A stretch of DNA of 64,000 bases from Blasia pusilla (taxonomy: Eukaryota): the NCBI GenBank assembly GCA_050084515.1, contig CM114271.1, positions 9,920,001 to 9,984,000 of the forward strand, read 5' to 3'. The translations under genes were made by a program, and so were the position numbers. Each line of letters opens with the position of its first letter. The stretch's first letter is position 1. Under the pieces are notes generated by a model. That model saw only the letters and a program-made list of their open reading frames with translations. It did no database searches and had not been told where the DNA came from. Positions 3,793 to 56,470 of the stretch are shown one piece after another.

Positions 3793-3872
<80 letters not shown>
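3793..3872. repeat. (GA)40 microsatellite
   Basis: Read directly from the sequence. Confidence 0.98.
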
Positions 3873-3875
<3 letters not shown>

Positions 3876-4400
3876 GTGGTTTATATGACTAGCAATAGAA
3901 TGACTAAGTGTGGTAAATGAATGAATAAATGACTTAAATGGAAATATGCAATTTTTTATCACAATTTAGTCATATTGTTCTAACTTAGAGTGATACAAAG
4001 ATGATTGGATTATCGTCTTAGTAATAAACATATTTATCATTTAAAAATAAAAATAAGAATTATGTTAATACAATTTCACTTTAATATATTAATTGTAGGG
4101 AGTCAGATGTAGCTTTCTTGGCAGTCATATCATCCATGATTACTAACTAGTTGAGTCATTCTTGGCAATGCCATTGGTGACTTGGCATCTGAAGTGTCAT
4201 CGCGGCACTTCCAACGATGACTCACCACCATCAAAATACTAGAATGACTATAGAGGTCATGGAATTTTTTTTCCCTCTTGGAAAAGACTCTTCTCAAGTG
4301 CAGATAAAGACTCTTGCGAATCTTGGATAACAAAGTTCCAACGAAGACCTCAAAGAGACCTCAAGAAGGAGGCGGATCACCCTACTTTCAGAACTGAATT

Positions 4401-23529: not shown

Positions 23530-24432
23530 ATGGACAACCAGGGTGGAGGACCGCGTAGGTTTTTAGGTGCAGTAGGCACGATTGAGTTGCACGATTTCAT
23601 GGCAGAGTTTAGGAGTTGATGCGACTCCCAACAGGCTAGGAACTCTAGAGAGTTCAACCCGTTTACAGCACGGAATGGTATGTTCCAGCATTTAGAGGGG
23701 GCGCCCATGGACGATTACCATGAGTTCTCCCACAGATATGCCCAAGAGATTGAGGCATGGCGACTCTACTATGACCCACACTATGTGTCATGGACAGAGT
23801 TGTTCCCAAATGAGGAGGAGGAGTCAGGAGAGGCTACTTCCTCTTCCACTAGTGATGTTTTATGAGGGGTCACTCGCAATGGAGTAGTTGCACCATCTAG
23901 TCGGGTTTGTCCCAAGTTCAACCCCATGGTTGAGTTCTTCGCTGAGTTGAGAGCCAGCTACCAAGGGGTACGGACGGTGAAGTTGCGGAGCATCCACGAC
24001 TTCCAGAGGCGCCCGGGTAAGAGTTTACGTGAGGCTTACACTTGCTTGCGTCGGTTGATCAACGTCACTCAAGGATGACGGAGGCTCAGGCTATCCAATC
24101 ATGGTACGCGATGTTGGACCGGACCCTGCGGACATGGACTCCGAGATAGGTCAACTGTGGCACCACGAGTTAAGGGAGGATACTGGGAGGCCGTGCCACA
24201 GAGATCTGCGCCTTCATATGCGGCTCAGCAGCAGCCGCCTACTATTACTTGTTGGTCATGTGGTGGAGCTCATCATCAACGTGATTGCACTCGTCAGGGT
24301 CATGGACATGCGCCTCAGCAAGGAGGAGGAGATGGTGCTGCATCGGGAGGTTACCAGTGTGACTATTGTCAGAGGTATGGTCATACACGCGCCAAGTGTC
24401 TCAGTTTACATCCTGAGTTACGTCCGGACTAA
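23530..24432 (+). pseudogene. gag with two CCHC zinc knuckles
   Basis: CWSCGGAHHQRDC and CDYCQRYGHTRAKC in ORF 24157..24432; the upstream reading frame is broken by stops. Confidence 0.8.
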
Positions 24433-26070
24433 GGGCCAGAGAGGGCACCAGAGTGAGTAGTCAGTCCGAGTGGGCCTAGAGATCGTGCACCAGGTAGTCC
24501 CGTTGGGGGACGAGGAGCTGGAGTTGCCCGACATGGTGGTGGAGCTGCCCGTTGAGGAAGTAGAGTACCACCACCTAGACACGCCAAGGGAGACGTTGGA
24601 TGTGAGGCTAGGATGGCTGCTCAGATATAGCAGCTACAAGAGCAAATTACCGCTATGGCATTGAGGTTACCCAATGCCGGATCCGTGGCATCGACATCAT
24701 ATGGAGCAGCCAGAGATGTGGAGAATCTTGGTTGGATGTGCGGGGTTGCCAAGATGGAGGCCGCCGCAATTATGACGCGTGGATCAGCCATAGAGTTGGA
24801 TCCACAACGAGGGGAAGCCAGAAGCTTTCACGTTGTCTGAAGCGATGAGGACCCCATCGATGGGTCCTCATCAAAGTTCCTGGAGAGTTGGTGATGTTGT
24901 TGGTGTGCAGGCACAGAGGGCAATGGGAGAAGCAAGTGCGACGACTCCAATTGTTGATGCTCATGAGGGGCATGTGTCGAGCACATTGTTGGAGGCGGCC
25001 ACCGTTGTGTACCCCGCTCCTTTATTTTCTGCTTCCAATATTATGACGTTGGGGGATACGCCCGCCGAGGCTTTTCGGTTGGCCGCTTCACTATGTGAGC
25101 GCGGAGTTGGAGTTCCTGCATCACGTTTAGAGGTGATTGCAGAGGAGGTGATGGACTTGCCCTTGGAGCGGATGCTCGGGCCGTCCACGTCAAATTCATG
25201 GCAGGTTGTGGCTGCTAGGATGGCGGAGACGCCCGCTAGACCTGCGATAGAGCGTGCCATGGCTTCTCCTGGTGTTGTGTTGCTGGATAACCCAGGAGAG
25301 GTCTTCCAGTTGGTGAGTCCCGGAGGTAGAGCTTTTAGTCCACAGCGTGTCTGGTTGGATTCAAGAGCGCAACCCCTGATGTTGGGGAAAGCGTCATTCA
25401 GAGGATTGGGCTTGACGAGAGCTGATATGGAGCGTTGTCCATTCTAGATATAGACATCCTTGGATGGAGCGATTACCACACAGTATATCACCCGACATGA
25501 GGTCATGGTGAGGATTCGCCCGGGACATCCTACAGATGAGTCCGTGGTACGAGCCAAGGCGATAGTGATTGATGCACAGTCCTAAGACGTCTTGGTTGGT
25601 GGAGCAGTGTTATGCTCAATGGGGTTTTCCCTAGATTACTGGGAGAAGTCAGCATCCTACGGACCAGAATGGCAATCAGGTGATGGGCGCCTTAGCTCAT
25701 TACCCGTTTGATTCACAAGTGCAGTGATCGAGCGACGGCCAGTAGAGGTGGCGACCTTAGCAGCATTTAGCAGTGCCATCACTTGGCCTAGTGATTTGAT
25801 TGAGGGACATGTCCATGCAGAGGATACTCCCGTTCCTGACATTTCTATGGAGAGGAGTGTTATGGTAGTCGCATCATTCCGTGGAGGAGAGGTGCCATTG
25901 TGGGGCTCAATTGAGGAGCTTCGACGATTGGCAGATGAGCACCTACAGACCGCGTGGAGCGAGGCATTTGCACCGAAGCGTGATGGGTCTGAGGAACCCA
26001 AGGTAGCACGGAGTGCTACAATGATACCCTTGGATATCATACCCATTGTGTGGTGTATCTCGGAGGAAGG

Positions 26071-35630: not shown

Positions 35631-36279
35631 GTTATTTGGGATATTGGGCTTCATGCATACGTTGAGAGCATCATGGATATATGGGCTTAGGGGACATAGA
35701 CCTATGTTGGATATCCAGAGTTCATGGTATATTCTATCGATGAGATGATATGACAGTAGTCGATTTTCCGCACCACGCTGCTTTTGGCACACACTACACA
35801 TCTTAATGAGAGGGAGTGTACATTGATTGCTGGGGGGCTGGTATTCTGGCAGGAGAGAGTAAGAGAGGAGAGGAAGAGAGGAGAGTCTCTCTTCAAAAAA
35901 AGGGCCAAATCCGCCTCCTCTCTTCAAAACTTTTTGACATATTTGAAATTTTTGTTTGCTTTCAAATTCATGAAATCTTTAGAAGAGAGTAGGTAGTGGT
36001 CCACATTCGGGCCTAAAGAAACCTCCTTTTTCCAGGGGGCAAAAAAAAAGTAGACATCATAAGACCACTACAAACATTTTTCCATCACTGTCCATGTGAG
36101 CCAAAGTTTCTTCACATTACCTATCTCGGTCTACAATAAGCAGTGCCCATGGGTAGTTTTGTTGGAGGACCACCCGAATGCGCATCGGTACGATGCCAAC
36201 CTCTCTTTTTGCAAGGATTTTTTCCTGCATCATGGCCTTCCCTGAATTGCCTCATAACCAACTTTCCTGACATCCGAAA

Positions 36280-37388
36280 TGGCAATCCGACAAGTAGTAG
36301 GAATCCTGCACATCTTAGACAAGAAAAGAAGCCTACAACTGGTTTGACGAATGTAGGGGAAGGAGCCAAAAGTTAAGAAGCCCGCCTCAATACTTCAGAA
36401 GTTGGTCTCATAGGGAAAGAGTTCGATCACTCAAGCAGCCAACCTGTCGGAATTCGACAGCTTGCCTGGAAATGGTTAAAAAGTTGCAGTGGGCAAAAAG
36501 CTCAAAGTTGCAACCCGTCGGAATCATACAGGTTGCAAAATTGTAATTCCAAGTAGCTAAAAGAACACAATCCACAAGTCCAAAAAAAATTTCCAACAAA
36601 CTTTTACAAACATCATTATCGGTTGAAAAAATCTCGTCCTTTATTACCTCTAAAGGAACCTCGGAAATGTACATTTGACCTAGTCTATGATTTCTTCAGC
36701 CTCGTCATCTACAAATTTACTCCTAACTCTCCTAGGTTCCAGTACAAAAGGAATGTACTGGGATACAAGTGGCTCCTCTGGCCGATTGTAGACGGGGATC
36801 GAAAATGTTGGCGAATTCGAGAGGCTTGCCCCCCCTAGGTACACCATAACGGTCCCATGTAACCTGATTTGAGTCCCACGGCCTTCCTCGGCAGTATATC
36901 TTGTACGCTCTGCAATGTGACACCCATCCAATATCAATATGTGCTCCGTCCTTGGTAATACCATGATGGCAATCCCACAGGTAGTAGGAATCCAACACGT
37001 TTGAGAGAAGAAAAGAAGCCTACGCCTTCTTTTACGAGTTGAGGGGAAGGTGCCAAGGTGAAGAAGCCCACCAGACTGCCTCTTAAGTTGGACCAACAGG
37101 GAAAGAGTCCGATCAGGCAACTTGTCGGAATCCAACAGGTTTCCTGGAAGTGGTAAAAAGGTGTAGTGGTCAAAAAGTGAAAAGTTGCAAGCAAGAGAAA
37201 TCTGACGGGTTACAAAATAGAAGTCCGCGGAGTACATAGATGATCACATTCGAAAAGACATAAAAAATGTTTAGCAAACTTTTAGAAGCACCACCATCGT
37301 TCGAAAAAATCTTCTCCTTTATTACATCCGAAAAAAGCTCGGAACTGTACATTTGATCTATTCTATGAAATCTTTTGCCTCATCATCA
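36280..37388. repeat. Diverged ~420-bp direct duplication in the MULE left arm (36280-36710 and 36968-37388)
   Basis: GGCAATCC..CA.GTAGTAGGAATCC, GAAAAGAAGCCTAC and TGTACATTTGA occur in the same order in both units. Confidence 0.8.
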
Positions 37389-37443
37389 AATAACTCCCTA
37401 CTCCAAACGCTGCAGTCAAGCTGGGTCCTTGAGTTCTTTGAAC

Positions 37444-40400
37444 TCACTCGTCATCGTCTGAGAGCTCTTGCAATATTACTTTCCGCCTTGCCATTCCGAT
37501 TTTTGTAATCTTTGGAAGTGACGATGGTGTCACTACCAATGGTGGGTCTGGAATCGGAGCTCTTTGCTTCGGTGGAGAGTTGTACGCCCCAACGAACCTT
37601 TCGTATTCTGCCTTTGCCTCCTTGCAAAGGTCAAACAATTCCTATCTTCCCTCGAGGCAGAGAATGTTCCTGCCACTCTGCCAGGCGCCTTTGATACTCG
37701 CCCCTGAAAGTCCCACTAAGTCAAACACCAAGTCACCCGGCCTTGAGCAGAGCTCGATGAGCGTTTGCATCAGGGCTGGCAACTTTTCCCTTCCTCCCAA
37801 AAGTGGGGTACCATCTTGCATGTAAATTCCCAGGGGGGAATTGTACAAACTATCTAAGCTGTACCACTCTGAGCATGGATCCACAGGATCCTAGATCTTG
37901 AACACCTGGAAGTTGTGCTCATGCCGAACGAAGCAGTAAACGTAGGAGTGCTCCATCTGTAAAGAAGCACGTTGGAAAGAATGTCAACAACTTGGCATAA
38001 TGTGCAACACGTCACCAAAGAACTCCGCTTGACCCTAGAGAACTTTTTTCAAATACTAACATTGGAGCAACCTGTCGGAGTCGGACGGGTTGTTTTGTCC
38101 ATGACCCACCCGTTGGAAGGCGACAGGTTGCTGGCTTAGAGCAGCCCATGCTTATCGAGAGCAACCCGCCGCTGACGGCGCTTTTTTTCGAAACACAGGA
38201 AAAACCATAGTAATCGCAACCCGCCGGCGTTCCGACGGGTTGCACGTTCACCGGCGTTTTCCCTGTGTTTCTGAATAAGATCCGACCCGTCGGAAAGCGA
38301 CGGGTTGCTCTCAGCCAAGCATGGGCTGCTCTAAACCAGCAACCTGTCGCCTTCCGACGGGCTTCTCACAGAAAAAAACAACGGATATATACTATCTGGA
38401 GACAGGAATAGAGCCATACCCGAATCTGGCTCGTCGCGAATCGGAGTGGGTACTCGTTCTTGATGATCCACGATTGCGCCGTCCTCCACTTCAGCGACCT
38501 CTTGACGCATTGGAGGTTGAAAAGCTCGTCCTTGCTCCCTCCAGTCAACACTAAGAAGCAGCCCATGTCACTCAGATAAGCGTCTGCAAAGGACAACAAT
38601 AGCGCGATCTGGTCATAAGAGAGGGGAACATTCCAGTCAGGTACCCCGTCCGACGGATTCTTGTCCCACAATCGCAACCCCGAGGGCAGATCAGCGATCA
38701 ATAGATCCACTGCCACCTCTTCGACCATTCCATTCACCGTCCAGGGTGCGTGCCCGCTTCGTTGAAGCTTTCGTCCCAGCGTTGTCAATTTATCAATGGC
38801 GGGTGTCGACGCTTGAGAATTGAAACTTTTGAGCTCATCTAGTAAATTCGTGAACTGAAGGAGGACGCTTGTCCGGGTCGTTGTTTCTCTATGTCTTCCC
38901 AAGGATGATGGACTGTATTCTCCTTGGGACAACCCTGGCACCTCTCGCTTCCGCTTCTCCCGAGTCTGCGGTCGGCTTGTCGGGGTCTCTATGACCTCAT
39001 ACTCTGTGGAGTTTTTTTCGCGGAGGACCTGGTCCAACCCTCTCTCCCCGCTCGCCTGGACGATTCCGCCTCTGGCCTTGAATCTTTAGCCTCTCTTTGG
39101 GAAGACTCGGCCTCGGAATTCTTCCCTCCCCTCGCCTTGCCTTTGAGACCCGTTGTGGATTTGTCTTTGGTTGTGCGGACCTTTGAAGCCAACTCAGCTG
39201 TCTCGAGGGCTTGCTCTTTCGCATCTCCTCCGAAGAAGTCTTCAAGCTGCACAAAATTGGGGATGTCATCCCGTCGTGAGGCCACTACATCATGAAGCAC
39301 GCGTAAATCTTTCTCGATGATGTCTTCAGGGTGGTTGAAGTCTAGCCAAATCGGGCAATTCTCCACCTCCCAATCGGACATGTGCTGAGCCATCTCCGTA
39401 TCGTACATGGAGAATGTCTCTCCATCAGGCGGCGAAGCCCACAATTTCAAGGCTGCCGGTAATTTTCCCCAGGTACCTGCATTCTTACAATGCACGAGGT
39501 ACCTGAAGACCATCCGTTGGGCAGCTCTTAGTCGAACTGAATCGGTTGCCTGCTCCTGAAGATCTCTCTTCTTCTTTGCTTGATCCCGTTTGTTCCCCTC
39601 GATTTCTTTGTCAAGGTTTGCCTAAGGGAGGACGCAAACCTTCAACATCGTCTTGAATCTTGGGTTTTTGATGGGCTTGTCTCGGATGTCATCGAGCCAA
39701 ACCTCGAAATCTACAGCACTTTCCAGGTTTGCTTCATTCGGAATGGGCTCTAATCTTTTGAGCTCCGCTTGGAGACCGTTCAGCACGGACTTCCCTATAA
39801 CCCGCAACGCATCCCAAAATGACCATTCGTGGAGCCAGTGGGAGATCACTGGATCAGACACACCCGGAGGATGGTGTGCCGCTCTCTTCTGGGCCTCTGT
39901 GCCCTCGAGATTGATTTTCATCACTCGGATCCTCCTAAACTTGCTTATTCTGGACAACGCAAACCGATGCACACGATCTAGGGACACTTTCTCCCCAATC
40001 CGACCTTGCGGATCTTCATCCCTTTTCCGTTGGCGCTTGATAATCGCCTTCAGCTCCTTGTAAAACTCCGGACCAAGTTCGGGGTTGAGAATGCTGATGT
40101 AGCACTGCATCTTGCTTGCTGTGTATTTCGTGGCTGTAGATACTGCAGCTTTGATGAATTTCGTGCACTCAGACCCAGATACTTTCTCCCTCAGCTCCAG
40201 CTCCAGTGCAGCGCTCTTCTTCGCGGCCTGTATCTTCGACCAGCAAAGGATTGTTACGGCTGCATCTTGGGAAATAAACTTATTTGCCCAAGTCTTCTTT
40301 TTTATCTGTGCACCCTTTGCAAGCATCTCGATTTACCAGGCGTCGCTCAAGAACCCCTTGTACTCTGCCGGGTGCGTTGTAAGCACCTTCTTCACCCGAT

Positions 40401-42446
40401 CGCAATCCTGGATCCAGTGGTGGGTGACATTCCCCTCCGATACAATCCTGCACATCCAAACTCAATTTCAGAAAATTTGTAAGTTACATGGGTTCCTGCT
40501 ACCCGTCGGACTCCGACGGGTCGTCACAGCTCAGGGTCGGATTCTAGCAACGAGCTAAATGATTCAACCCGTCGGAGTCCGATGGATTGCATTCACATTT
40601 GTGAATGCCTGGTTCAACCCGTCGGACTCCAACGGGTTGTCAGATAGTCTATATCAAACGTGAACATAGCAACCCGTCGGAGTCCGACAGGTTGCGCAAT
40701 TGCATGGAAAGCTGCAATTTGACGCGAAAAAGGTAGCTTCCAACTTCCGAATGCAACCCGTCGGACTCCGACGAGTTGCTTTCGGCCAAAAACATAAAAA
40801 AGCCTCCAAACAGCTTCGAGTCAAGCAACCCGTCGGACTCCGACGAGTTGCTTTCGGCCAAAAACATAAAAAAACCTCCAAACAGCTTCGAGTCAAGCAA
40901 CCCGTCGGACTCCGACGAGTTGCTTTAAGCCAAAAACATACTAAACCTGTGGTCAGTCGAACAACTCGTCGGAGTCCGACGAATTTCTTTCTTCAAAAAA
41001 CATCCAGAAAAGGCGGCGAGTCGAGCAACTCGTCGGACTTCGAAGAGTTGCTTTCGGCCAAAAACATCCTAACTTCTGCCGTTATTCGAGCAACTCGTCG
41101 GAGTCCGACAAGTTGCTTCACCCATTCATCAATCGAGCAACTCGTCGGAGTCCGACGAGTTGCGTTTGGCCAAAAGCATCCCAACAACAGTGGCAACCCA
41201 AACAACTTGTCGGAGTCCGACGGTTTGCAGCAAGAAGAAACTTACGTGTTCATGGCATGCATGGCCATCTCCACAGTCGCCATGTGATGAGGGTATGGAT
41301 GAAGGACCACTCCCTTCACGCAAAAATGTGCCTCAAAGGAGTTTGGGCGCTCCTCTGCAAACTTTGTCCACGCCATGAACCTGTGATTTCCATCCCAGAT
41401 GAAGAAATGCAGATTCTTCATCCAGCTGAATTCCGTGCCCTCTACTTGCCATCTGAAATCCAGGTCTCTCATCCTCCAGAATGTGTCGAGCTTTTCCAAG
41501 TCCTCCTCCGTAACTAGGGCTTGGGTTCCATGCTCGTCGTAAGGCTGAACATAGAAGGGAGGGAAGCTGTTGACGTAGGATGCTGTCGCCGCCGATTGTT
41601 TGAGCTTCGCGATATCCTTGTCGGACTGAATTTCGCTGACGTATTCCATTGTCCGCAATCGGCAGAGTGGAATTCTCAGGGCGTTGTGTCCCTCCATCAG
41701 TGCCATCTGCTTTACCACCTGTTAGAACCGGGACAAGATCAATAAGCTACACTGAATTGCCAATGAATTGCAAGATGGGCCTTTACATAACTCAAAAAAC
41801 CCAGATCCTCTCTTACCCGCTCGAAGATTGGGTCGGTTTCTTGACCAGCCAACTTGTCTGAGACAGCAAATGGCAAGTCCACTGGGAACTCGTCGATCCG
41901 ATAGAGGTCGATTTCTTCCGCCTGGCTTGGAGACGAGGATGATTGCTCTCCTGCTTCTTTGGCAATGTCCACCATCTCCACGCTGGCGGTCGTCATTACC
42001 TCATTGTCCGTGATTTGAACTTCTGCCGTTTTTGCTATGTTGATTGTGTCCCCGGACTTCATCGGGGACATTTCCCGCATCTCAACACTTTCGGTTGGAC
42101 GAGGAGGGCTGTTGTCAATGGCTATTGCTTTTTCCCTCCTTGCTTTAGCCAATTCTGCTCTCCTCACCAACGCATCCAGACGCTTCTTTTCTCGCTTTTC
42201 GTCGGCGATCCTTTTCTTCAAGGCCTACGACTTCTCAGCCTCTGTGTTCTGTTTATCGAGCGCCTCTTGTACATGTCTCGCAAGAAGCTCCTGGTTGTGC
42301 ATCTCCGCTTCCCTTTCCTGCTCCTCGATTTCCTGCTGCCTAATCTCATTTGCCGAAGGAGGCCCTGGAGATGCTGACGTAGGAGTCCTAATGGACTTAG
42401 GAGTGAAGCTCCCAAACTTAGTTGCTTGAGCTTTTTTCCTCGTCAT
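37444..42446 (-). pseudogene. Spliced cargo gene: charged N-terminus, ParB/Srx-like domain, beta-class N4-C/N6-A DNA methyltransferase-like domain
   Basis: FFIWDGNHRFMAW (ParB/Srx GxxR patch, 41380-41394). VDLLIADLPSGL...W...LLSFADAYLSDMGCFLV (motif IV region). REKLPALMQTLIELCSRPGDLVFDLVGLSGASIKGAWQSGRNILCLE (motifs X, I, II). Adjacent ORFs at 42225 and 37642 join in frame across single TAG stops. GT-AG introns at about 41245-40450 and 38417-37958. Confidence 0.82.
40498..41229. repeat. Intronic cluster of about 12 copies of the 27-bp palindrome, including a 72-bp tandem unit
   Basis: GCAACCCGTCGGACTCCGACGAGTTGC at 40753, 40825 and 40897. Perfect palindrome GCAACTCGTCGGAGTCCGACGAGTTGC at 41137. 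Confidence 0.95.
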
Positions 42447-42726
42447 TTTTCCTGGAAATGCCTCCACCTATGTCCACGATGAATTGCTTGATCAATCGCC
42501 TTGCTGATGTTGAGATGAGTCGCCTTGATGGGTAGCTCAAATCATCTCGCGATCGTTCAATCGAATCGTCCCGCTCTTGTTCGGTCAAACCGTCTCGCTC
42601 TCGTTCCCTCGTATCGTCTCGCAATGACTCGCCGTGTGAAACACCTCTTGGTATCTGATGAGCTGCTGCGCGGGAAAGCAATGGAGATCGCGAAATGAGA
42701 AACCAGAAATGAGCGATTTGTGCCCT

Positions 42727-42733
42727 ATTTATA
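42727..42733 (-). promoter_or_regulatory. Candidate TATA box of the ParB-methyltransferase gene
   Basis: TATAAAT on the minus strand about 280 bp upstream of the ATG at 42446. Confidence 0.55.
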
Positions 42734-42822
42734 ATTTTCTAGCCGTTGGGTTGACCGTTGGGTCCCGTCGTCCTTTCGACGGCGACATGCCGGCCGTTAC
42801 GAAAGTCCGGACGTGAAAAATG

Positions 42823-43453
42823 GCAACCCGTCGGAATCCAAGAGGTTGCGCGCCTCCTCCGTCTTGGGAAGATAACGCAAGGTGCGCGAGCAACCCGTCG
42901 GAGACCGACAGGTTGAGCGCCTCCGCCGTCTTTGGACAAGAACGCGAGGTACCCGCGCAACCCGTCGGAGACCGACAGGTTGCGAGCCTCCGCCGTCTTC
43001 GGACAAGAATAGGACATACCCACGCAACCCGCCGGAGACCATTGGGTTGCACGCTTCCCTCGTCAAGGGTTAGCAACGCGGGCTTCCCGTGCAACTCGTC
43101 GGAGGCCGACAGGTTGCACGCTTCCTTCATGTAAGCGAAACAAGGCGAGGCCCTTGCGCAACCTGTCAGAGGGCGACGGGTTGCACGTCTCGCCGTCTTT
43201 GGGCAAGAAGGTGCGGCACCCGCGGAACTCATCGGGAACAAACGGTTTGCACGCTTCCTTCATGTAAGTGTTACACTGTGAGATAATTGGGCAACCCGTC
43301 TGATGCCGACGGGTTGCAAGCCTCCGCCATCTTCGGGCAAGAAGGAGCGGTATCCGAGCAACTCGTCGGAGAGCGACGGGTTGCCAGCTTTGACTATGTT
43401 TGCGTTTGAAGGTAAGGCAGAAGCCTCCAACCCGTCCAAAGCCGACGGGTTGC
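42823..43453. repeat. Phased array of ten 27-bp palindromes with ~67-bp period in the divergent promoter region
   Basis: Unit starts at 42823, 42890, 42957, 43024, 43091, 43158, 43224, 43291, 43358 and 43427. Confidence 0.95.
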
Positions 43454-43661
43454 AGGCTTTGCTTAGCTTGGGTTAATTGTTGAGTTACCAAGACTCCGAC
43501 GGGTTTCAACAAAATGAAGTGTGCTTCGCAACCCACGTCTCTGCTTCCCAAATCCGGTAACACATTGCAACATAATTGAATCCATTGTGTCAGAAAATTT
43601 CGCCTACCAAACTTCATCTTGTCAGTAAAATTCTGTCAGGAGTATCTGTTTTCCTATTCAC

Positions 43662-43668
43662 TATAAAT
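43662..43668 (+). promoter_or_regulatory. Candidate TATA box of the transposase gene
   Basis: TATAAAT followed by a (TTCTCA)n pyrimidine patch and the ATG at 43738. Confidence 0.6.
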
Positions 43669-43737
43669 TAAAAATTCTCATTCTCATTCTCATTCTCTTT
43701 CTCATTCTCACTCTCCTCCCGTACAAAATTTTTCGGA

Positions 43738-46688
43738 ATGGATAATTATGTGAAGCTCACTTGTGGCAATCATCTGGCGGCCCTTCCTCAATCAGAAATC
43801 GTTCGACCGCAAGCTCGTGAGTTTTTCATAGCAGTGGATGAAAATTTTCTCTCCCTCCGATTTCTTCTCCAAATTGGAACCATCTTTGTATCCAAGGATG
43901 TTAGGGTGGACGGTACGGAGGACATAATAGGTGAGATAGTCCAACCAGTGTCTGCAGACCGTAAAGTATGGAATCTCCTACCTCTAGCAAATGGTCAATA
44001 CAGAGTTTATGGCCTGCCCCTGAATTTGTCAGTTTCCCAAGTAGACGGTCGAAAATTTCCTAGTGCTCCGAGCTCTACGTTTGCAACTCCTAGCTTAGTA
44101 GATCCGGCTTCGACTCCAACTTCACACGCTCGTAACAATGTTGTTCTTCTTGAAGAGATTCCGGATGTTATCAACCTTAGTGAATCTTTCGGACACCAAC
44201 CGGGCCCTTTGTCCGCCTACTCGTTCCTCTTGCGAGTATCAGGCAAAATTTTGCTTTCGTCTTTGGCCTTGAAAATGTTCAAGCACATTCTTGTCGACGA
44301 GCTACCGCCCACGTACGATGGTAATTGCATTTTTGAGTTGCCTCCACTTGCTGCTCTTGCTCAAAAGAAAGATGGAGGATGCCTGAAGGGTATGGATAGA
44401 AAGTGTGATTTTCATCGATGGTGCAGGCTTCAACGGACAAGTGCTTCAATTCCAGATGGTCCTTGGATTGTCTCCCACCGCCAATGCGTCGGAGCCTTGG
44501 AGTGTAGAAGTCCAGCATGCCCATATCTAGAGCGCAACGGGCGAGTCAATACGTCGCAATTCCCCCCCAAGAATGCAGAAACTCCATACGAGGTCGGTTC
44601 CACCATACCGCCGGGAGGCCATCGATGTCCTCATTGTCAGCCATCGCCCTTCTGCGTTGGAGCGTGTCCTGCATACATATTTTTCATTGTCCATGACTTG
44701 GGCTCCACGTCAGAGTACACTAGGCTGGCAGTTCATGTTGGCTCCCACACTCATCCTGTGACCGATGCAATTCAGAGACACATCAAGGAGGATGTGGCAA
44801 AGAAAATTTCCGAGGTCTACAGAAACTCTCCAGGTTCAAAGCCCGGAGTGATCAAGCTCACAATGGCATCACAAATTTGTGAACAATTGCTTGGAATCCC
44901 TGGACAGGGCGAGAAACAACTCTGGGAAAATCTCGCATTTCTTGCTGATCCTGAATGCTTCCGGAATTTGCTGCGTCAAATACGAGTTTTGGATGGACAG
45001 ACGGCCAAAATGGATGCCATCGCCAGAATCAAGGCCAACTCCAAATTTCCATTCATTCAGAGATGGCAGTTCATGGGCCAAGAAGGCGAGGGATCCAGGG
45101 CCTATGTCTTCAAAATGTCAACCACAGGTCCGTTGAGTGGCCTTGATCTTATAGATCGAATGAGGCATGGGGAAGATCTTTACAGCAGCTGGGTAAGCTT
45201 TGATATTTGCTACAGAGTGCTGAATGGATGGTTGACGATGGATGCTCATGTTTATGACCATGTGGAGAAGGGACTCAAAACTATATTTGTCTGTGAAGTA
45301 AAGGCAGAAGACGTTGGCAGTTTGAAGATATGCTAGTTACTCTTATTGGAGGTGGTGAAGGAAAACAAAAGGCCACCTCCGGAAATTTATGGGTTCATGG
45401 CGGACAATGCACAACGTGGGTGGATTGCTATCCGGAAAGTGTTCTGGGGTGGAGAGGTTCAATCGGAGAGGGAAAGGTCGGATGTTTTCCATTGGCAACA
45501 GTCTGTGACCCGTACACCAAATCTTGCATCAAGGAGAATAAGAGGACAGAGCATGTCACTCTACTCCAACGTTGCAAGGACAGCAAAACCTTGAAGCAAG
45601 CCATGGAATGCCAGGAAGAACTTCATGGGTGGTGGAGGAAGCATGCGATTGAGGGGAAGTACAAAGAGTTGTGCTCTTGTTGAGTTGGTGGACTGTATGT
45701 ATGAGACAATGGGGAAACTTCATGCGGCATGTTAGTTCACTATTTTGTCTTGTCAAGCTCACGCTGAGAATTGTTTGTAAAGTTGCAGCTCAAGTTGAGA
45801 AGCGTGGGAACTATAGGGATTTCAAACCGAAGAAACCAAGCAAGCTGTCGGATGCGACGGGTTGCCCGAGTGTGCAACCCGACGGAAACCGACGGGGTTG
45901 CATCCATAATTTTGGTGCAACCTGTAGACAAGTATGCAAGTTGCATGTATACAAGGCCTGCAAATAGTTCAACCCAGATGGGTTTCGGATGACTTGCACT
46001 TGGATCTTCCAGAGTGGCCACAGGTTCTTGCAACCCGTCTGAATCCGACGGGTTGCAACACGTCGGGACCCGACGGGTCGCAGAGTCATTCATGGGATGC
46101 CTCGGCCTTGCAACCCGTCTGAATCCAACGGGTTGCAGTAGGTGGGTTTAAGGTTGCAACACGTCGGGACCCGATGGGTCGCAGAGTCATTCATGGGATG
46201 CCTCGGCCTTGCAACCCGTCTGGTTCTGACAGGTAGCTTATTTCTTTGACTCCTGAGTTATTTTCGTTCCCTTCTAACATTGCCGTCGTTGCAGGGATTG
46301 AACATTCATGAAAATGCCCTCTGCCCCAACACAAGTGGAGCAGAAAGTGTTCATTCCTCTTGGAGGTCGTCACAAGCATGCCAACGAATTTCACTTGTGA
46401 AGGCATGCCAACAAGACCAGGCAAGAGCAATGCTACAGTGTGCAGCATCCCATATCTTCCTCACAAAAGGCATAACAAAAGGAAGGGGACCGTCGATCTA
46501 CGAGCTCTATGTCATGTTCATGTGATGACTTTGTCCAAAGAGAGACAAGTGGTAAAAGGTATTTCCCTTGTAAGCACATGTACTATGAGTTGCTGGTAGT
46601 TTTAAGAGAGTCGGAGGTAGGAGTAGGAATCCACCAACCAATTACGTCCCTCAAAGAAGTGCGAAGTATTTTAAACAAACCACTTTGA
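43738..46688 (+). pseudogene. MULE-type DDE transposase with N-terminal GCM/WRKY-like zinc domain and C-terminal SWIM finger; has a stop, a frameshift and an internal deletion
   Basis: CVGALECRSPACPY...CPHC...C...HVGSHTHP. First Asp in VSFDICYRV, second Asp in FMADNAQ, C/D(2)H motif DVFHWQQSV, Glu in NTSGAESVHSSW after an intron at about 45731-46294. SWIM CSCDDF...CKHM. Confidence 0.85.
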
Positions 46689-47306
46689 GGATGCAAAATA
46701 AGGTTTTAGATTGTACTTTTATTTTTCCTGAACCTTCACTTTGAGCTTGAACTCTATTCAGCCCGGGGCAAATGATAGATTTTTTCCAGACCTTGGATGG
46801 AAAAAGTGATTGGTTCCACACTTATGATTCCATTGATTTTTCAGTTTTCTAAATTTTGTGCAATTTGCAACTCGTCGGACTCAGAGGGGTTGCCAAAATA
46901 TGGAAGAGGAAAAAAAAAATTATGGGACTGCTCAATAACTGAACAAAAAAGTGCAAAAAAATTCACACAAAAAGTTTCCTCTCTTCAACCCAACGGAAAC
47001 TCTCTTCAAAAAAAAATATCTATTTCGATTGAATGTAGTTTCCTCTCTCCTCTCTCCTCTCTTCCTCTCCTCTTACCGCACCTCTTGATTTCCGCATGTG
47101 TTTAGCTTGAGTGATTGAGGGATTACTCGCGAGATTGAGAGTGATCGTATGAGAGGGGCACGAGGGTCATCACGGCATCCTTTCAGGAATCTGAGAGGCA
47201 AGGTGGTGGAACTAAGAGGAGCTCTAGAGGATATACGCGGAGTGGTGTGAGGTTTCAAGAGTCTCCATGTGAGGGACTGCCTCAACCTCCTTCTATGTCG
47301 TCTTCA

Positions 47307-47469
<163 letters not shown>

Positions 47470-50400
47470 GAGTTTGTTAGTGCATCACCGCACACACTGA
47501 GTGGTCCGACCGCCTAGGAGTATGAGATGGATGATCGGGATAGAGGAACGCGTAGGTTTTCAAGTGCTATAGGCACGATAAAGTTGCATGACTTTGTTGT
47601 GGAGTTTAGGAGTTGGTGTGATTCACAACGGGCTAGGAACTCTAGAGAGTTCAACCCGTTCACAGCATAGAACGGCATGTTCCAGCACTTAGAGGGGGCA
47701 TCCATGGACAATTACCATGAGTTCTCTCAGAGATATGTCGAGGAGATTGAGGCATGGACACTCTACTATGACCCACACTATGTGTCATGGACTGAGCTGT
47801 TCCCAGACGAAGAGGAGGAGTGAGGAGAGGCTACTTCCTCTTCTACTACTGATGTGTTAGGAGGGAAAACTCGAATTGGAGCAGTTGCATCATCCAATTA
47901 GGTTCGTTCTAGGTTCAACCTCGTGATTGAGTTCTTTGCGGAGTTGTAGACAAGCTACCAAGGGGGTACGGATTGAGAAGTTTTGGAGCATCCACAACTT
48001 CCACAAGTGCTCAGGGTGAGAGTTTGCGTGAGGCCTACAATTGCTTGCGTTGGTTGATTACCATCACTGAGGGAGTGAAAGAGTCCCGAGCTATCTTGGC
48101 ATGGTACGCAATGCTCAATGGAGACCTGCGGAAATAGGTGAGGGATGGGATACTTCTTATGCACAACTCACCTACGTTGAGATATTTTTGTATGACCATC
48201 AAGAACATTGAGCGCAACATGGTTGAGGACAGCGTAGCCACCATGGATTCTGTGCAAGAGCAATCACAATAGCCTGTACCATGAGTGTAGCAATGTGGCT
48301 TTTGAGAGAGATCTCTCGCACCAAGAGTGCAAGAGGATACCAAAAGGCTGTGCCACAGAGAACTGTGCCTTCATATGCAACTCAACAGCAACTACCTGCG
48401 ATTATCTGTTGGGCATGTGATGGAGCCCATCACCAGTGCGATTGCACCCATCGTAGTAGTGGATGCATCCCTCAACATTGAGGAGAAGATGGGCCCGCAC
48501 TAGGAGTCTACCAGTGTGACCATTTTCAGAGGTATGGTCACACACGTGCGCGATGTTTTAGCTTACACCTTGAGTTACGTCCGGAGCGAGGGCCAAAGAG
48601 GGGATCAAAGCGAGTTGCCGATCGGGATGGGCTTAGAGGTCGTGCAAATGGTCCCCTTGGAGGACGAAGAGTTGGATTTGCCCGGAGGGGTGGTGGAGTT
48701 GCCCATGGAGGAGGTAGAGTTCCACCACCTAGACGCGTCCATGAGGACGTTGGGCGTGAGGTTGAGATGGTTGCTCAGATATAGCAATTGCAGTAGCAGA
48801 TTGCCGTTGTGGCATTGAGGTTACCCGATGCCGAATCTATGGCATCGACGTATTATGGAGCATCTAGAGACATGGAGGATCTTGGTTGGATATGTGCTAC
48901 TATCCTGATGGAGGCAGCCGTTGTTGTTACACATGGAGCAACTGCAAAGTTGGATCCATAAAGAGGGGAAGCCAAGAAACGGACCAAGCTTCCTTAGTCT
49001 TTTATGTTGTCTAAGACGATGAGGACCCCATCGATGGGTTCTGATCAGAGTTTCTGAAGAGCGAGGAAGGCGGTGGGACTCAAATCAAGTTACATGGGAC
49101 CATTATGGTGTACCTAGGGGGGGGCCAAGGCTCTCAAATTCGCCAACATTTTTTATCCCCGTCTACAATCGGCAAGAGGAGCCACTTGTATCCCAGGACA
49201 TTTCTTTTGTACAGGAACCTAGGAGAGTTAGGAGTAAATTTGTAGATGACGAGATTGAAGAAATCATAGACTAGATCAAATGTACATTTTTTAGCTTCCT
49301 TCGGATGTAATAAAAGACAAGATTTTTTCAAACGATAATGGTGTTTGTAAAATTTTGCTGAATATTTTTTTTGGACTTGTCGATTGTGTTCGTCTAGCTA
49401 CTCAAAATTTTTATTTTGCAACCCGTCTGATTCCGAAGGATTGCAACTTTTCACTTTTTGACCACTGCAATTTTTTAACCATTTCCAAGCAAGCTGTTGG
49501 ATTCTGACAGGTTGGCTGCTTGAGTGATCGGATTCTTTCCCTGTGAGACCAACTTCTGAGGCATTGTGGCGGGCTTCTTCACTTTTGGCTTGTTCCCCTA
49601 GTATCGTCAAATCAGTCGTAGGCTTCTTTTCTTCTCTAAGACATGTTGGATTCCTACTTCCTGTCGGATTGCCATTTCGGATTCCCAACGTGTTGGATTT
49701 TCGTGGGTGCAAGGTGGAATGGAATCACTTCTCAAAATCTTTCCTTTGTTATGGTGAGTTTGCTTGCAAGGGGTGCAAGCCATCTACTTTCGACGAGTTG
49801 CAAGAGTTGCAACCTGTAAAATTACGACGGGTTGGGAGGGGTGCAGCTTCTCGGTTTCTCAGATTTAGGATTTGAATGAAGGGACATCAGTTCCTCTTTA
49901 CTCCAGACAGCTAACAATCTTTTGGTTCAATCATCGTCTCGTGTGTTCACATTTCACAAAGTTGGTCTTGAGCAGACATCATTCATTATGGGGCAATTCA
50001 GGGAAGGTCATGATGCAGGCAACAATCCCTACAAAAAGAGAGGTTGGCATCGTACCCGATGCGCATCCGGGTGAGGTCTCATGACACATTAACACTTTAG
50101 AGACACTTGGGAATAGGGGAAGCTCAACAATTCTTATTGTGGTACTATGTTGCCAATGGTTTTCCATAATGTATGATGAGTATTGATGCCTTCTGCAAGA
50201 AGAGTCAATAATCATTTACAGGCATTTCTTTGTGCCTTTCTTTTGCAAGAAAAGATGTCAATCCATAATGTCAACCAAATATTCCGAGAAGTTAAACCTT
50301 GAAAAGCACCGCAGTTTGTTGAGACCATTGTTAGAGTCTTTATTTGAACCTTTCATTGAGATGAGATTGCTACTTCTAGTCAAATTATTTGCCAATGGTC

Positions 50401-51192
50401 CTCCAACAAAAATACCCTTGGGCACAGCTTACTGTAGACTGAGATATGCAATATGAAGAAACTTAGGCTCACATGGAGAGCGATGGAAAAATGTTTGTAG
50501 TGGTCTCATGATGTCTACTTGTTTTTCGCCCCCTGGAAAAAGGAGGTTTCTTTAGGCACGAATGTGGACCACCACTACCTACTCTCTTCTAAAGATTTCA
50601 TGAATTTCAAAGCAAACAAAAATTTCAAATATATCAAAAAGTTTTGAAGAGAGGAGGCAGATTTGGCCCTTTTTTTTTAAGAGAGACTCTCCTCTCTTCC
50701 TCTCTCCTGCCAGAATACCACAATGGAGTAGGAAGGATGTATTGGGTCAGGAACAACACTGTAAATTCAAGTGTCATAGGGGTGTATGTGGTGCACATCA
50801 GTTGCTTTCCCACATGTTCATGTGATGACTTTGTCCAAAGAGAGACAAGTGGGAAAAGGTATTTTCCTTGTAAGCACATGTACTATGTGTTGCTTGTAGT
50901 TTTAAGAGAGTCGGAGGTAGGAGTAGGAATCCACCAACCAATTTTTTCCCTCAAAGAAGTGCAAAGTATTTTAAACAGACCACTTTGAGGATGCAAAATG
51001 AGGTCTTAGATTGTACTTTCATTTTCCAGAACCTTCACTTTGAGCTTGAACTCTATCCAACCAAGGAAAATGATATATTTTTTCCAAACCTTGGATGGAA
51101 AAAGTGATTTTTTCCACACTTATGATTCCAATGATTTTTCCGTTTTTAAAATTTTATGCAAGTTGCAACCCGTCGGATTCAGACAGGTTGCC

Positions 51193-54100
51193 TGTTAGAT
51201 TCTCAACATCCACTTCTCTGAGCACCATATATCTAATCCGCCCCCTTGTATGAGGAGAAGCCTAGATTGATGGTTCTCACTTAGACGTCGAAGGAGTCAT
51301 AGTAATATGACGTAGGTGGTTTATGGAGTGGCGTTACTAGGATTATCCAATCCTATAATGCATTAAGGTGCGGGGCACCCTGATTTTTCTATTAATAGAA
51401 ACAAAGAAAAAAAGGTAAAAATCCTAGTTTCTCGAGTAGTGATGTAGTGAGTAGCCGCAGGGGTAGCGTATTCTCGCATGTTTTGTTATCTCCATGTTCA
51501 GGTTCCATCGAAGCTCTTTTGTGAGCACACGGACGGACTAGGCCACTTTGTATCTCTAAGTTTTGTAAAGATTTCAGTGATTTCGTCACTTTCTGTTTTC
51601 TCACATGGTATCAGAGCGCTAGGTTTTCCAATATTTTGTATTTGGCAATCTACTGTGTTTGCACTAAATCTTGAGAGATGGCTACTTCTTTGTCAGTTCG
51701 TGCTCGCCCTCCTCCGCTGGATGAAGGGAAGTTAGATGGGTCTAACTATACATTGTGGAATTTCAAAATGAGAACTGTCCTCGAGTCATTTGAGATCTGG
51801 GAGACGGCCATAGGGGTCGATTTGAATCCACAAGCTACTTTGAGTTCTGCATGTTCATCTTCATCTAGTGATATCGATCCTGTTGTATTGCTCGAATGGA
51901 AACGCAGAAACGTTGATGCTCTATATGCGATTGGCACGAATGTAACTGATTCTGTCATGACTCTCATTCAACATACAACCACTGTTGTTGAGGTGTGGAA
52001 CATTCTGAAGAATCGGTATGAAACGAGGAATGAGACTCAGATTCAGAATCTGGAGAATCAGCTTAAGTCCAAGAAATTTTCAGAAGGAGAAATCGCAGAG
52101 CAATTTTTGACAAGGATCAAGAATCTTCAAGATCAAATGGCGTCCGTAGGAATTTCAAAGTCTAGCAAAGATTTGGCAAGTCGGTGCATAAGGATTTGGC
52201 CTCCAAGGTATGACAGGTTGGTCACTGCATTGAATACTCAAGTAAGACCCGCGTCGCTTACTTTTGAACAATTTAGTGTAATGTTGGTAGAAGAGGAAAT
52301 GCGCTTCAAAGCAATAGAGGGAAGTGATGTAGCATTTAGTGCCAACGTATAGAGAGGTAGAAATCAAGATTATAGTTCAAATGTCAAGAAGAAATTTCCA
52401 AGGAAAGCCTTCAAATGCTTTTATTGTGGTAAGCTAGGTCATCTTATCAAAGATTGTAGAAAGAAGAGTCACGATGAGAAGAACGGTTGTTTAAGACCTA
52501 AGAAGGAGTGTGGAAATTTTGTAGAACTAGGAGAACATGAAGTAGATGCTTTGGTAGCAATTGAAGAGTTTTGCACACAGGCAGAACATTCCACTAAGTC
52601 AAAGAGTGAAGATGCATGGGTGCTCGATAGTGGAGCATCTAGGCATATGACTAATCATAAGGATTGGTATAGCTCCTTACAGCCTCTACAGGAGCCCATC
52701 GTTGTTACTGTTGGGAATAATGCAAAGTGCCCTGTAGAAGGGAAAGGTACAATTTCTTTCGTCTCACAAAAATGAGATGAAAAGAAGTTAACTGATATAC
52801 TGTTCGTACCAGAGTTGAAGCAAAATTTGATTTCAGTAGCAGTATTATATGATCGTGACCTAGAAGTTCGTTTCAAGAAACTGGAGCAGTCATTTAGGAT
52901 GCCAATGGGAAAGTAGTGGGTGAAGGAATACGACGTGGAAATATCTACGAGTTGTATGCTCTCACGATAAGTGTAGGTACCGATCTTAGTAGCAATAAGT
53001 TGTGGCATGAAAGATTTGGTCACCTAAGCTTTCCCTTACTAAGTCAGATACAGAAATCTGGCATGGTTATTGATTTACCAATAATTTATGGAGTGTCGGA
53101 TACATGTGAAGCTTGTATGATGGGCAAGCAACACCGAAAACCATTTCCACAAGAGTCCATCAATAGAGTAAAGGCTCCTCTAGAGTTGATTCATGTTGAC
53201 CTTTTGGGTAAAATGAGAACACTGGCATTAGGTGGTTCTTCCTACTTTTTTTTAGTTTTCAACGATTATAGTAGGAAGATGTGGGTGTATTTCCTTCGTG
53301 ATAAGGCAAGTGCTTTTGGAAAATTTAAAGTATAACACAAGCTGGTTGAGAATGAGACAGGAAAGAAGATACAAAAGCTTTGCACCGATCGAGGAGAAGA
53401 ATTCTTATCAACAGAATTCAACAAATATTTGGGGGAGCATGGAATCAAGCAACAGTTAACCACGACACCTACACCACAAAAAAATGGAGTTGTTGAGCGT
53501 CGAAACCGTACAGTGGTGGAGATGGAAAGATGTATGATGAAAGCAAAAGGTTTGACAGAAGGATTTTGGGCTGAAAAGTCGCATTATCTTGCCGTTTACA
53601 TTCTAAATAGAAGTGCAACCAAGTCAGTACAAGGCATGACTCCTCATCAATCATACTCAGGTAAGGTACCATCAGTCCAACATTTCAGGACTTTTGGTAG
53701 TGAGTGCTTTGTATATATTCCTGAAGCATCCAGGACCAAGCTGGAGTCCAAGAGCAGGAAGTGCATCTTTATGGGATACAGTGATGAGTCTAAAGCTTAT
53801 CGCCTATGGTGTCCTGAGGCAAAGAAGATGCTTGTGAGTCGTGATGTGGTGTTCCAGGAACAACCTTGTCAAGTGGCGGATATCAATGGTCTGTCCATAT
53901 TATCATCAAAGGAAGAGATAACCCACCAGAGCACACCACCAATGTTTACACCAGATCATCAAGAAGAAAAATTTGGTGATGATTACAAAGAGCAGTCTGC
54001 TCTTCCACTACGGTCGTCATACCCTAAGTGGATAAAGCAGCTATTGGATGGTAAAGATCCACCAGCAATTGATGAAGTTGTTACACATCCAAGGAGATCC

Positions 54101-56183: not shown

Positions 56184-56470
56184 TTGCCAAAATGTGGAAG
56201 AGGAAAAAAAAAATCTATGGGAGTGCCTAAGCACTGAGAACAAAAGTGCAAAAAAATTCACACAAAAAGTTTCCTCTCTTCAACCCAAGAGAAACTCTCT
56301 TCAAATCACAGGAAACTCTCTTCAAATCACAGGAAACTCTCTTAAGAAAAATGTATCTCTTTAGGTTGAAGGTAGTTTCTTCTCTCCTCTCTCCTCTCTC
56401 TCGTCTTATCTCCTCTCTCCTCTCTTCTTCTCTCCTCTCTTCCTCTCTTCCTCTCCTCTTACTACGCCTC

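Follow-up and report, generated by a model that had tools for sequence, protein, structure and literature searches.

Introduction

Transposons that carry genes for DNA-modifying proteins have so far been noted briefly, and in algae. The 21.5-kb family Sola1-1_Ec32 of the brown alga Ectocarpus encodes, opposite its transposase, a protein of 1104 residues that joins a ParB-like domain to an N4C/N6A DNA methyltransferase domain. The Plavaka elements of the red alga Bostrychia moritziana carry PAG2, an N6-adenine methylase with a SET domain, and PAG3, a ParB N-terminal domain with a 2-oxoglutarate oxygenase, and tandem inverted-repeat arrays beside the ParB-domain gene are read there as self-binding sites (bioRxiv 10.1101/2025.02.11.637652). 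The authors of both papers propose self-modification for these genes. Of the kinds of gene known so far, such ParB-methyltransferase accessory genes from algal transposons come closest to the gene described here, which lies on the minus strand of a stretch of 64,000 nucleotides (the window) from Blasia pusilla (assembly GCA_050084515.1, contig CM114271.1, positions 9,920,001 to 9,984,000 of the forward strand). It is likely, in our judgement, that this gene is a decayed copy of an accessory gene of a DNA transposon, and that its product ends in a true homologue of the beta-class N6-adenine/N4-cytosine methyltransferases, probably a binding module that acts on the DNA of the element itself. The locus is an ordinary dead transposon copy, and the family behind it is a variant of the recently noticed accessory genes.

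An initial annotation, made from the letters of the window, had recognised a prokaryote-type beta-class amino-methyltransferase domain with non-canonical catalytic motifs at 37444-38720, which is the 3' third of the gene. It did not recognise that this is no host gene but one that a repeated DNA transposon carries as an accessory.

The likeness to the algal systems, compared here by description, is one of design. As in Sola1-1_Ec32, a long protein (about 1,210 codons here) is encoded on the opposite strand and places an N-terminal domain before a C-terminal N4C/N6A methyltransferase domain; unlike that Sola1 element of a brown alga, the present gene has bryophyte relatives, a SWIM-bearing, MULE-like neighbour, an unconfirmed ParB domain and replaced catalytic motifs. 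With PAG2 and PAG3 it has in common that DNA-modifier genes are borne by a transposon together with inverted-repeat arrays, which are of the same kind in the window element, but in the red algal Plavaka elements the methylase and the ParB domain sit on separate proteins with other partners. A literature search, judged at the level of listings, found no description of such a gene design in bryophytes.

A divergent beta-class methyltransferase domain

Read on the minus strand, the gene holds the motif IV-like sequence DLLIADLPSG at 38707-38678, with D-L-P-S at 38692-38681, inside the block VAVDLLIADLPSGLRLWDKNPSDGVPDWNV. The following exon holds the motif X-like block EKLPALMQTLIELCSRPGDLVFDLVGLSGAS, which begins EKLPALMQ and starts at 37788, the motif I-like FDLVGLSGAS at 37725-37696 and the motif II sequence GRNILCLE at 37674-37651; REKLPALMQTLIELCSRPGDLVFDLVGLSGASIKGAWQSGRNILCLEGR occupies 37791-37645 and is followed by one TAG and then by ELFDLCKEAKAEYERF. 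The motif IV-like block comes first and the X/I/II block second, the exon with D-L-P-S lying upstream of that with FDLVGLSGAS and GRNILCLE. This is the beta-class order IV...X-I-II, and a profile alignment to the structure 5hek is colinear with it. Both the sequence blocks and the beta permutation claimed in the initial annotation are thereby confirmed on the minus strand, and the replacement of DPPY by DLPS and of FxGxG by VGLSG is present as it had described.

Exon 4, which encodes the C-half of the domain, matches on its own PF01555 in Pfam (E 0.0011, 19.4 bits against a gathering score of 26.7), phrog_6952 'DNA methyltransferase' in PHROGs (1.7e-5), MTase_II in PADLOC (2.2e-4) and M.RsrI in the PDB (0.012). 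The N-half exon alone gave no match in the Pfam, NCBIfam and PHROGs libraries, and its assignment comes from homology to the moss protein P0003 and from the alignment A1 described below. An exhaustive HMMER search of exon 4 against 1.84 billion representatives returned six proteins at E <= 0.001. Among them are the family relatives P0003 (758 residues, Ceratodon purpureus), P0006 (349 residues, Riccia sorocarpa) and the fragments P0002 and P0005; P0001 was rejected as a repeat artefact, and P0004 as a canonical bacterial fragment that does not belong to the family. A word-indexed search with the N-half exon against longer proteins retained 0 of 2,113 candidates, and one with residues 395-665 of P0003 found only three Ceratodon paralogues; the four intact Ceratodon proteins are 758-810 residues long. 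PF01555 was the best Pfam match in all five proteins scanned. The Riccia protein P0006 covers positions 2-212 of the 221 in that profile and also matches phrog_67 (8.3e-9) and PADLOC MTase_II (2.1e-8).

The two window exons and seven relatives were combined into the profile A1 and searched against the PDB. The best match was 5hek, an M1.HpyAVI/DpnA-type adenine methyltransferase (E 1.2e-8 over profile positions 70-260), followed by 5hfj (1.5e-8) and CcrM, 6pbd (7.2e-7); weak matches were M.MboIIA (E 0.13) and, over the motif I region, the rotifer N4CMT, 8s9m (E 0.14), and two ribosomal-protein matches at E 0.12 were discarded as noise. The alignment with 5hek sets 'iiaDaPeg' against 'IITDPPYN' and 'DlsastgAS..RhllglE' against 'DPFMGSGTT..RNFIGIE'. 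By this profile comparison the C-terminal domain is a true, divergent homologue of the beta-class DNA amino-methyltransferases, nearest to the adenine enzymes, and the class named in the initial annotation is borne out by the PDB profile search, PHROGs and PADLOC alike. The domain has the motif order of M1.HpyAVI/DpnA (5hek), CcrM (6pbd) and M.RsrI (1nw8) and can be aligned with them over the whole catalytic domain; those enzymes have DPPY or DPPH and F-x-G-x-G where the window has D-L-P-S and V-G-L-S-G. Moreover, in contrast to the bacterial beta-class enzymes, the family belongs to eukaryotes, its genes have introns, and its proteins extend at the N-terminus by about 900 further residues.

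A tie to the N4-cytosine enzymes, which the initial annotation had allowed for, found no support, since the rotifer N4CMT matched only at E 0.14 as against about 1e-8 for the adenine enzymes, and Marchantia MpDN4MT1 has a canonical TSPPY. The pair MpDN4MT1a/b consists of sperm-expressed host genes (bioRxiv 10.1101/2021.02.12.428880). They and the bdelloid N4CMT are prokaryote-derived amino-methyltransferases that have settled in eukaryotes, in the Marchantia case in a bryophyte. They are not close to the present family, the former being TSPPY host genes and the latter a marginal profile match. A further parallel is the methyltransferase domain of DIRS1, in which catalytic and substrate-binding residues are substituted and which is predicted to be inactive with a binding or regulatory role (PMC4738411). 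It too is a transposon-encoded methyltransferase fold with replaced catalytic residues; unlike the present domain, it belongs to a PCIF1-like group, is part of the polyprotein of a retroelement, and has RNA as its probable substrate.

A metagenome scan with an alignment of the C-half (A2) returned a single locus, L001, which proved a false positive on a high-GC bacterial contig with a UDP-glucose-dehydrogenase-like open reading frame. Neither exon 2 nor P0006 had a tblastn match in phages.

Replaced motifs as a family character

The canonical motif IV of the beta class is (D/N/S)-P-P-(Y/F/W/H). It is found neither in the window (D-L-P-S) nor in the four Ceratodon paralogues (D-A-P-E) or Riccia (D-P-P-T). 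The fourth position is aromatic in none of the three lineages whose N-half is known, and the first proline is lost in two of the three. Motif I reads DLVGLSGAS in the window, DWSA(N/S)TGAS in Ceratodon, DCNLGYGAS in Riccia, and DLSASTSAS and DLSASTGAS in the fragments P0002 and P0005, of which the C-half alone is available; F-x-G-x-G is lost in four of these five lineages, and G-x-G is kept by Riccia only. What has been kept is the D and the second P of motif IV, the D of motif I, 'GAS' in place of 'GTT', and the E of motif II, and the invariant columns of A2 include G74, V77, D79, A86, S87, R96 and E102. Since the replaced motifs are common to intact relatives, they are a character of the family and not the result of decay.

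Among the Ceratodon proteins P0003, P0008 and P0009, identity is 92-94% in the N-half and 84-89% in the C-half of the methyltransferase-like domain, as against 76-81% in the N-terminal region and 61-72% in the linker. The domain is thus the best conserved part of these paralogues, which argues that intact copies hold it under constraint at the protein level. We infer that the methyltransferase fold has been kept in the intact copies and that the aromatic residue that stacks on the target base has been lost across the family. Of the three options that the initial annotation had left for the odd motifs (an active variant, a dead but DNA-binding reader, or decay of this copy), the last is true of the copy, which carries six lesions, but does not account for the motifs, which intact relatives share.

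With such motifs, the chances appear about even that the domain is a module that binds S-adenosylmethionine (SAM) and/or DNA and has no ordinary transferase activity, that is, none at all or an atypical one. The transposon would then use a methyltransferase-like protein as an accessory factor on its own DNA. The foremost alternative is that the product of intact copies is an active DNA amino-methyltransferase whose catalytic loop, D-x-P-x, is unusual. Such an enzyme would mark the DNA of the element with N6-methyladenine (6mA) or N4-methylcytosine (4mC), for instance near the palindromes described below, and so escape or modulate silencing by the host. We regard this as possible, and as the less probable course. 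It would fit the invariance, across lineages that are 25-44% identical, of the two acidic residues that contact SAM (D in motif I, E in motif II) and of D and P in motif IV, the conservation of the domain in Ceratodon, the Riccia protein with its DPP, its G-x-G and its long match to PF01555, and the self-modification put forward for the algal counterparts; the missing aromatic, the first proline lost in two lineages and the F-x-G-x-G lost in four speak against it.

It is improbable, further, that the domain is merely what remains of a bacterial gene, captured or acquired by horizontal transfer, which is decaying without function in every copy and whose motifs are simply eroded. The heavy damage to the window copy and the Pfam scores of all family members, which lie below the threshold, would be expected of a relic. 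Four intact Ceratodon proteins whose methyltransferase-like domain is more conserved than its flanks would not, nor would the recurrence of the same replaced motifs in moss and liverwort as well as in the window organism, or a family that is transcribed and spliced. The preferred reading remains that of a constrained, non-canonical module.

Architecture of the gene and the DGNHR domain

The predicted protein is laid out as a charged N-terminus, a domain with a DGNHR motif, a middle region of about 500 residues and the C-terminal methyltransferase-like domain (coordinates in Table 1). The junction of exons 2 and 3 is seen in RNA, where run X19 has three reads whose match stops at 40447 and whose next 24 letters align to 41246-41268 with a score of 21/24. 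Intron 3, which splits the methyltransferase-like domain, has the donor CGG/GTATGG (exon end 38420) and the acceptor TTTACAG/ATG (exon start 37956), both in phase 0. Ceratodon P0003 is colinear across it, its residues 403-522 corresponding to 38797-38444 and its residues 585-646 to 37815-37630, and the tblastn match of P0003 to the window N-half exon has E 1.3e-6. RNA depth falls to 0-0.36 over 38008-38361 as against 1-12 in the flanking exon bins; among the 15 joints listed, out of 115, no RNA read spans the intron 3 junction. The intron within the domain, which the initial annotation had proposed, is thus supported by its GT..AG ends, by the colinearity with P0003 and by the drop in RNA depth. 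In this copy, the intron holds an inverted-repeat insert with arms at 38093-38153 and 38317-38377 that bear the same palindromes as the rest of the element. Moreover, 154 DNA reads leave the window sequence at 38402 and run on in AT-rich letters without a match in the region, which indicates that in other copies, too, an intron lies at this place but differs in content.

Exon 2 has four relatives (E 6e-16 to 1e-5, 27-34% identity) in which IPLCR and DGNHR are invariant. All four end exactly at the end of exon 2, which suggests an old, shared exon boundary. The long residence in eukaryotes that had been deduced from the split domain is plausible, with relatives of 25-44% identity in one moss and one liverwort and with an exon end after the DGNHR domain that is common to all four of the distant relatives.

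The DGNHR domain is possibly ParB-like: its motif recalls the ParB/Srx fold, a resemblance that library, PDB and fold searches did not confirm. Comparison of language-model features in the Atlas placed the exon near DUF3723 (0.95, with 170 features in common), near a cluster of which 11% of the members have ParB_N (0.93) and near DUF6551 (0.91). A Foldseek search of the PDB with the AlphaFold2 model of exon 2 (five sequences; mean predicted local distance difference test score, pLDDT, 57.5) found none among 62 matches with E <= 0.001, the best having E 1.3.

DUF3723 is a fungal domain, a conserved cargo gene of the Starship giant transposons. The language-model features, which have no alignment behind them, hint at an accessory domain common to very different giant elements.

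The carrier element and its copy number

The gene stands head-to-head with a plus-strand gene that has a SWIM exon, and both lie between inverted arms. Whole-genome DNA reads from run X15, which bears the same species label as the window, were aligned to 37300-42600: of 18,640 reads, 59 were at least 99% alike, 1,928 were 95-99% alike and 16,653 were 90-95% alike, so that the most diverged class stands to the near-identical one at about 300:1. Summed over both directions, and from about 1% of the run, DNA depth over the exons is 130-970. Judged from these read classes, the window copy appears to be one diverged member of a family of something like 10^2 copies.

The read depth, the inverted arms and the divergent SWIM gene place the methyltransferase-like gene within a repeated element, on the strand opposite a putative transposase whose identity is only probable. 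The 554/618-residue plus-strand reading frame had no Pfam match, to MULE or otherwise, and no PDB match, and the Atlas leads for it were weak (ZSWIM1-3_RNaseH-like/MULE, with scores of 0.76-0.79, below 0.85). A second, fragmentary SWIM copy at 50593-50988 reaches 19.9 bits with PF04434 against a gathering score of 19.6. Mutator-like elements are recognised by an RNase H-like DDE transposase, long terminal inverted repeats and a target-site duplication of 9-11 bp; the window element shows a SWIM finger and long inverted arms, and a search for the duplication found none. On balance, the carrier would seem to be a MULE-like DNA transposon, a view we favour without great assurance.

That the gene is instead a host gene, domesticated and merely situated among transposons, is very improbable. 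It does have introns and a plausible promoter-side ATG, and the NCBI annotation treats its relatives like any other hypothetical protein. A host gene, however, would not be expected at an exon depth of 130-970 with nearly all reads 90-95% alike, nor as a pseudogene, nor to have palindromes in its introns that recur in an intron of the neighbouring gene and in the inverted arms.

Element-specific palindromes

The element is strewn with a palindrome, CAACCCGTCGGA-N-TCCGACGGGTTG, of which there are about 35 element-specific copies. Its 12-mer half-site CAACCCGTCGGA occurs, with at most two mismatches, at 75 sites in the window against 2.96 expected, and 0 of 100 shuffles reached 75. All but one of these sites (74 of 75) lie within 36440-51190, most of them as inverted pairs 13 nucleotides apart. 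Arrays of the palindrome occupy six places, namely introns 2 and 3, the intergenic region, one intron in the plus-strand gene and the left and right arms; the coding sequence holds just two half-site matches, both with two mismatches. DNA reads show many length variants of the arrays, which marks the arrays as a feature of the family.

As judged from their placement in introns, in the intergenic region and in the arms, the palindromes are probable candidates for the sites that the accessory protein of the element would bind.

Decay of the window copy and expression of the family

The window copy is a pseudogene that encodes no full-length protein. Its lesions are given in Table 1; the two TAGs in exon 4 lie within the stretch covered by the initial annotation and had been overlooked there. 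The reads of run X15 contain the undamaged states. Behind 39005, 209 of 415 DNA reads carry an additional G, which joins the upstream frame to the downstream one. An extra G behind 40338 (215 of 251 reads) and the missing base at 40329 (181 of 275) together remove the TAA. Differences between the window and the family number 766, of which 40 were listed and 35, at which nearly all reads depart from the window, were classified, five intronic ones at 40974-41012 being left out as they are not the DNA majority. The 35 comprise 8 non-coding, 10 synonymous and 17 non-synonymous differences, a synonymous/non-synonymous split that is about the neutral expectation, as in neutral decay.

All five point nonsense codons in the two genes of the element, four in the methyltransferase-like gene and one in its neighbour, are TAG, and the sole TAA was made by indels. 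A C-to-T change at CAG, a CHG site and as such methylated in plants, gives TAG, and an excess of TAG is expected in a silenced repeat; such changes in a CHG methylation context would explain the all-TAG pattern. That TAG might instead be read as a sense codon in an open frame, which the restriction of the point stops to TAG would allow, has a negligible chance of being right, given a frameshift and an indel-made TAA that family reads correct, a gene that ends in TGA, the CAG-to-TAG excess expected in a silenced repeat and, to our knowledge, no nuclear TAG reassignment in any land plant.

From three RNA-seq runs that bear this species label, 63, 103 and 64 reads aligned to the gene region. None of them is at least 99% alike, and the first mate lies mostly on the plus strand. 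In most stranded libraries a first mate on the plus strand corresponds to minus-strand RNA. The family is accordingly expressed: other copies give rise to low amounts of sense RNA, which is spliced. Over part of the intron 2 array (40663-41016), all RNA reads carry variants (such as 40974 G>C, 40997 A>C and a 1-nucleotide loss at 40994) that occur in 0-30 of about 230 DNA reads, as if a single copy of the array, located elsewhere, were being transcribed.

Weighing and significance of the proposed module

Several observations weigh against the account of a DNA-transposon accessory gene with a binding module. No family member reaches the PF01555 gathering score of 26.7, the range being 15.7-26.5 bits (P0005 26.5, P0006 24.5), and an AlphaFold2 model of P0006 from nine sequences was unusable, with a mean pLDDT of 40.3. 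Motif IV is known from three lineages only, and the conserved D of motif I, E of motif II and D and P of motif IV fit, together with the constraint, an active enzyme with unusual motifs equally well. ParB finds no support in sequence or profile searches of Pfam, NCBIfam, PHROGs, PADLOC and the PDB, so that the label presupposed by the phylogeny that the initial annotation had proposed is confirmed by neither library nor fold searches. What stands for copy number is a ratio between read classes, not a count of loci; element termini with a target-site duplication were looked for at both arms and not found, and the transposase assignment draws on the SWIM finger and weak Atlas leads. Finally, binding of the protein to the palindromes is purely inferred, and these could alternatively be subterminal repeats bound by the transposase.

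A more specific scheme, which we put forward as speculative, is that of a self-recognition module in bryophyte transposons. The DGNHR domain and the re-tooled methyltransferase fold would bind the palindromes and would either deposit an unconventional mark or, if catalytically silent, shield the element from cytosine methylation by the host. If true, such a module would correspond, in land plants, to the ParB-methyltransferase system proposed for algae, and would be VANC-like in function. The VANC anti-silencing proteins of the Arabidopsis VANDAL elements, which are MULEs, are accessory proteins that act on short motifs repeated in the non-coding DNA of their own elements; the analogy would lie in function only, as the folds are unrelated.

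The moss and liverwort family would place such a system in transformable plants with readable methylomes. A high-copy family that is transcribed and spliced, with a constrained non-canonical fold and a candidate binding motif, makes it possible to examine whether transposons put marks on the DNA of their own copies or protect it. It is also a warning for annotation that the domain should not be counted as a host writer of 6mA or 4mC.

Neighbouring features of the window

Table 1. Coordinates of the element, its two genes and the lesions of the methyltransferase-like gene. Positions are those of the window; minus-strand features are given in reading direction, and a slash marks the exon end.
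Feature	Position	Strand	Remarks
Whole methyltransferase-like gene	42446-37444	minus	four exons, about 1,210 codons
Exon 1	42446-41817	minus	ATG at 42446; charged/coiled N-terminus; donor CGG/GTAAGA after 41817
Exon 2	41718-41246	minus	conserved domain IPLCR...FFIWDGNHRFMAW...AMHAMN
Intron 2	41245-40448	minus	filled with palindrome arrays
Exon 3	40447-38420	minus	middle region and N-half of methyltransferase-like domain (38797-38420)
Intron 3	38419-37957	minus	463 bases, inside methyltransferase-like domain
Exon 4	37956-37444	minus	C-half of methyltransferase-like domain, acidic tail; stop TGA 37446-37444
Lesion, TAG	42227-42225	minus	exon 1
Lesion, TAA	40335-40333	minus	exon 3; made by paired indels near 40338 and 40329
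Lesion, TAG	39624-39622	minus	exon 3
Lesion, frameshift	between 39006 and 39005	minus	1-nucleotide deletion; frame change between 39085 and 38989
Lesion, TAG	37893-37891	minus	exon 4
Lesion, TAG	37644-37642	minus	exon 4
Intergenic array between divergent genes	42818-43506		67-nucleotide tandem units (42818-43391), one palindrome each; repeat family D1, 7 copies
Divergent gene, putative MULE-like transposase	43738-46688	plus	long open reading frame; in-frame TAG 45334-45336; GFMADNAQ...FHWQQS stretch
SWIM zinc-finger exon	46476-46688	plus	C-terminal in plus-strand gene; PF04434 16.1 bits
Left inverted arm	35839-36890		blastn 88-89% identity to reverse complement of 49062-50720; outer end starts GGTATTCTGGCAGGAGAGAG
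Right inverted arm	50720-49062		begins GGTATTCTGGCAGGAGAGAG like left arm

In or beside the left arm there is a tandem duplication, 36279-36730 and 36966-37411 (74% identical), both copies of which match 49224-49675 in the right arm. Later insertions complicate the right side of the element. A gypsy-related piece at 47099-49061, between the 3' region of the SWIM gene and the right arm, is 74-82% identical to part of a Ty3/gypsy element at 23-30 kb (23244-24887; 24-30 kb). Further to the right lies a Ty1/copia element at 51193-56184, with long terminal repeats at 51193-51606 and 55735-56184 that are 82% identical. It interrupts the fragmentary second SWIM exon together with the sequence 3' of it, as 50813-51192 together with 56184-56305 matches 46513-47010.

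Elsewhere in the window, long (GA)n/(CT)n microsatellites at 47273-47475 and 3793-3882 are identical over 80 nucleotides. Apparent host genes with long open exons occur at 11103-16307 and 59583-61576 (minus strand), the last of which ends in a sequence that by eye resembles a response-regulator receiver (..LMDCQMPKLDGYDATRAIRE-like).

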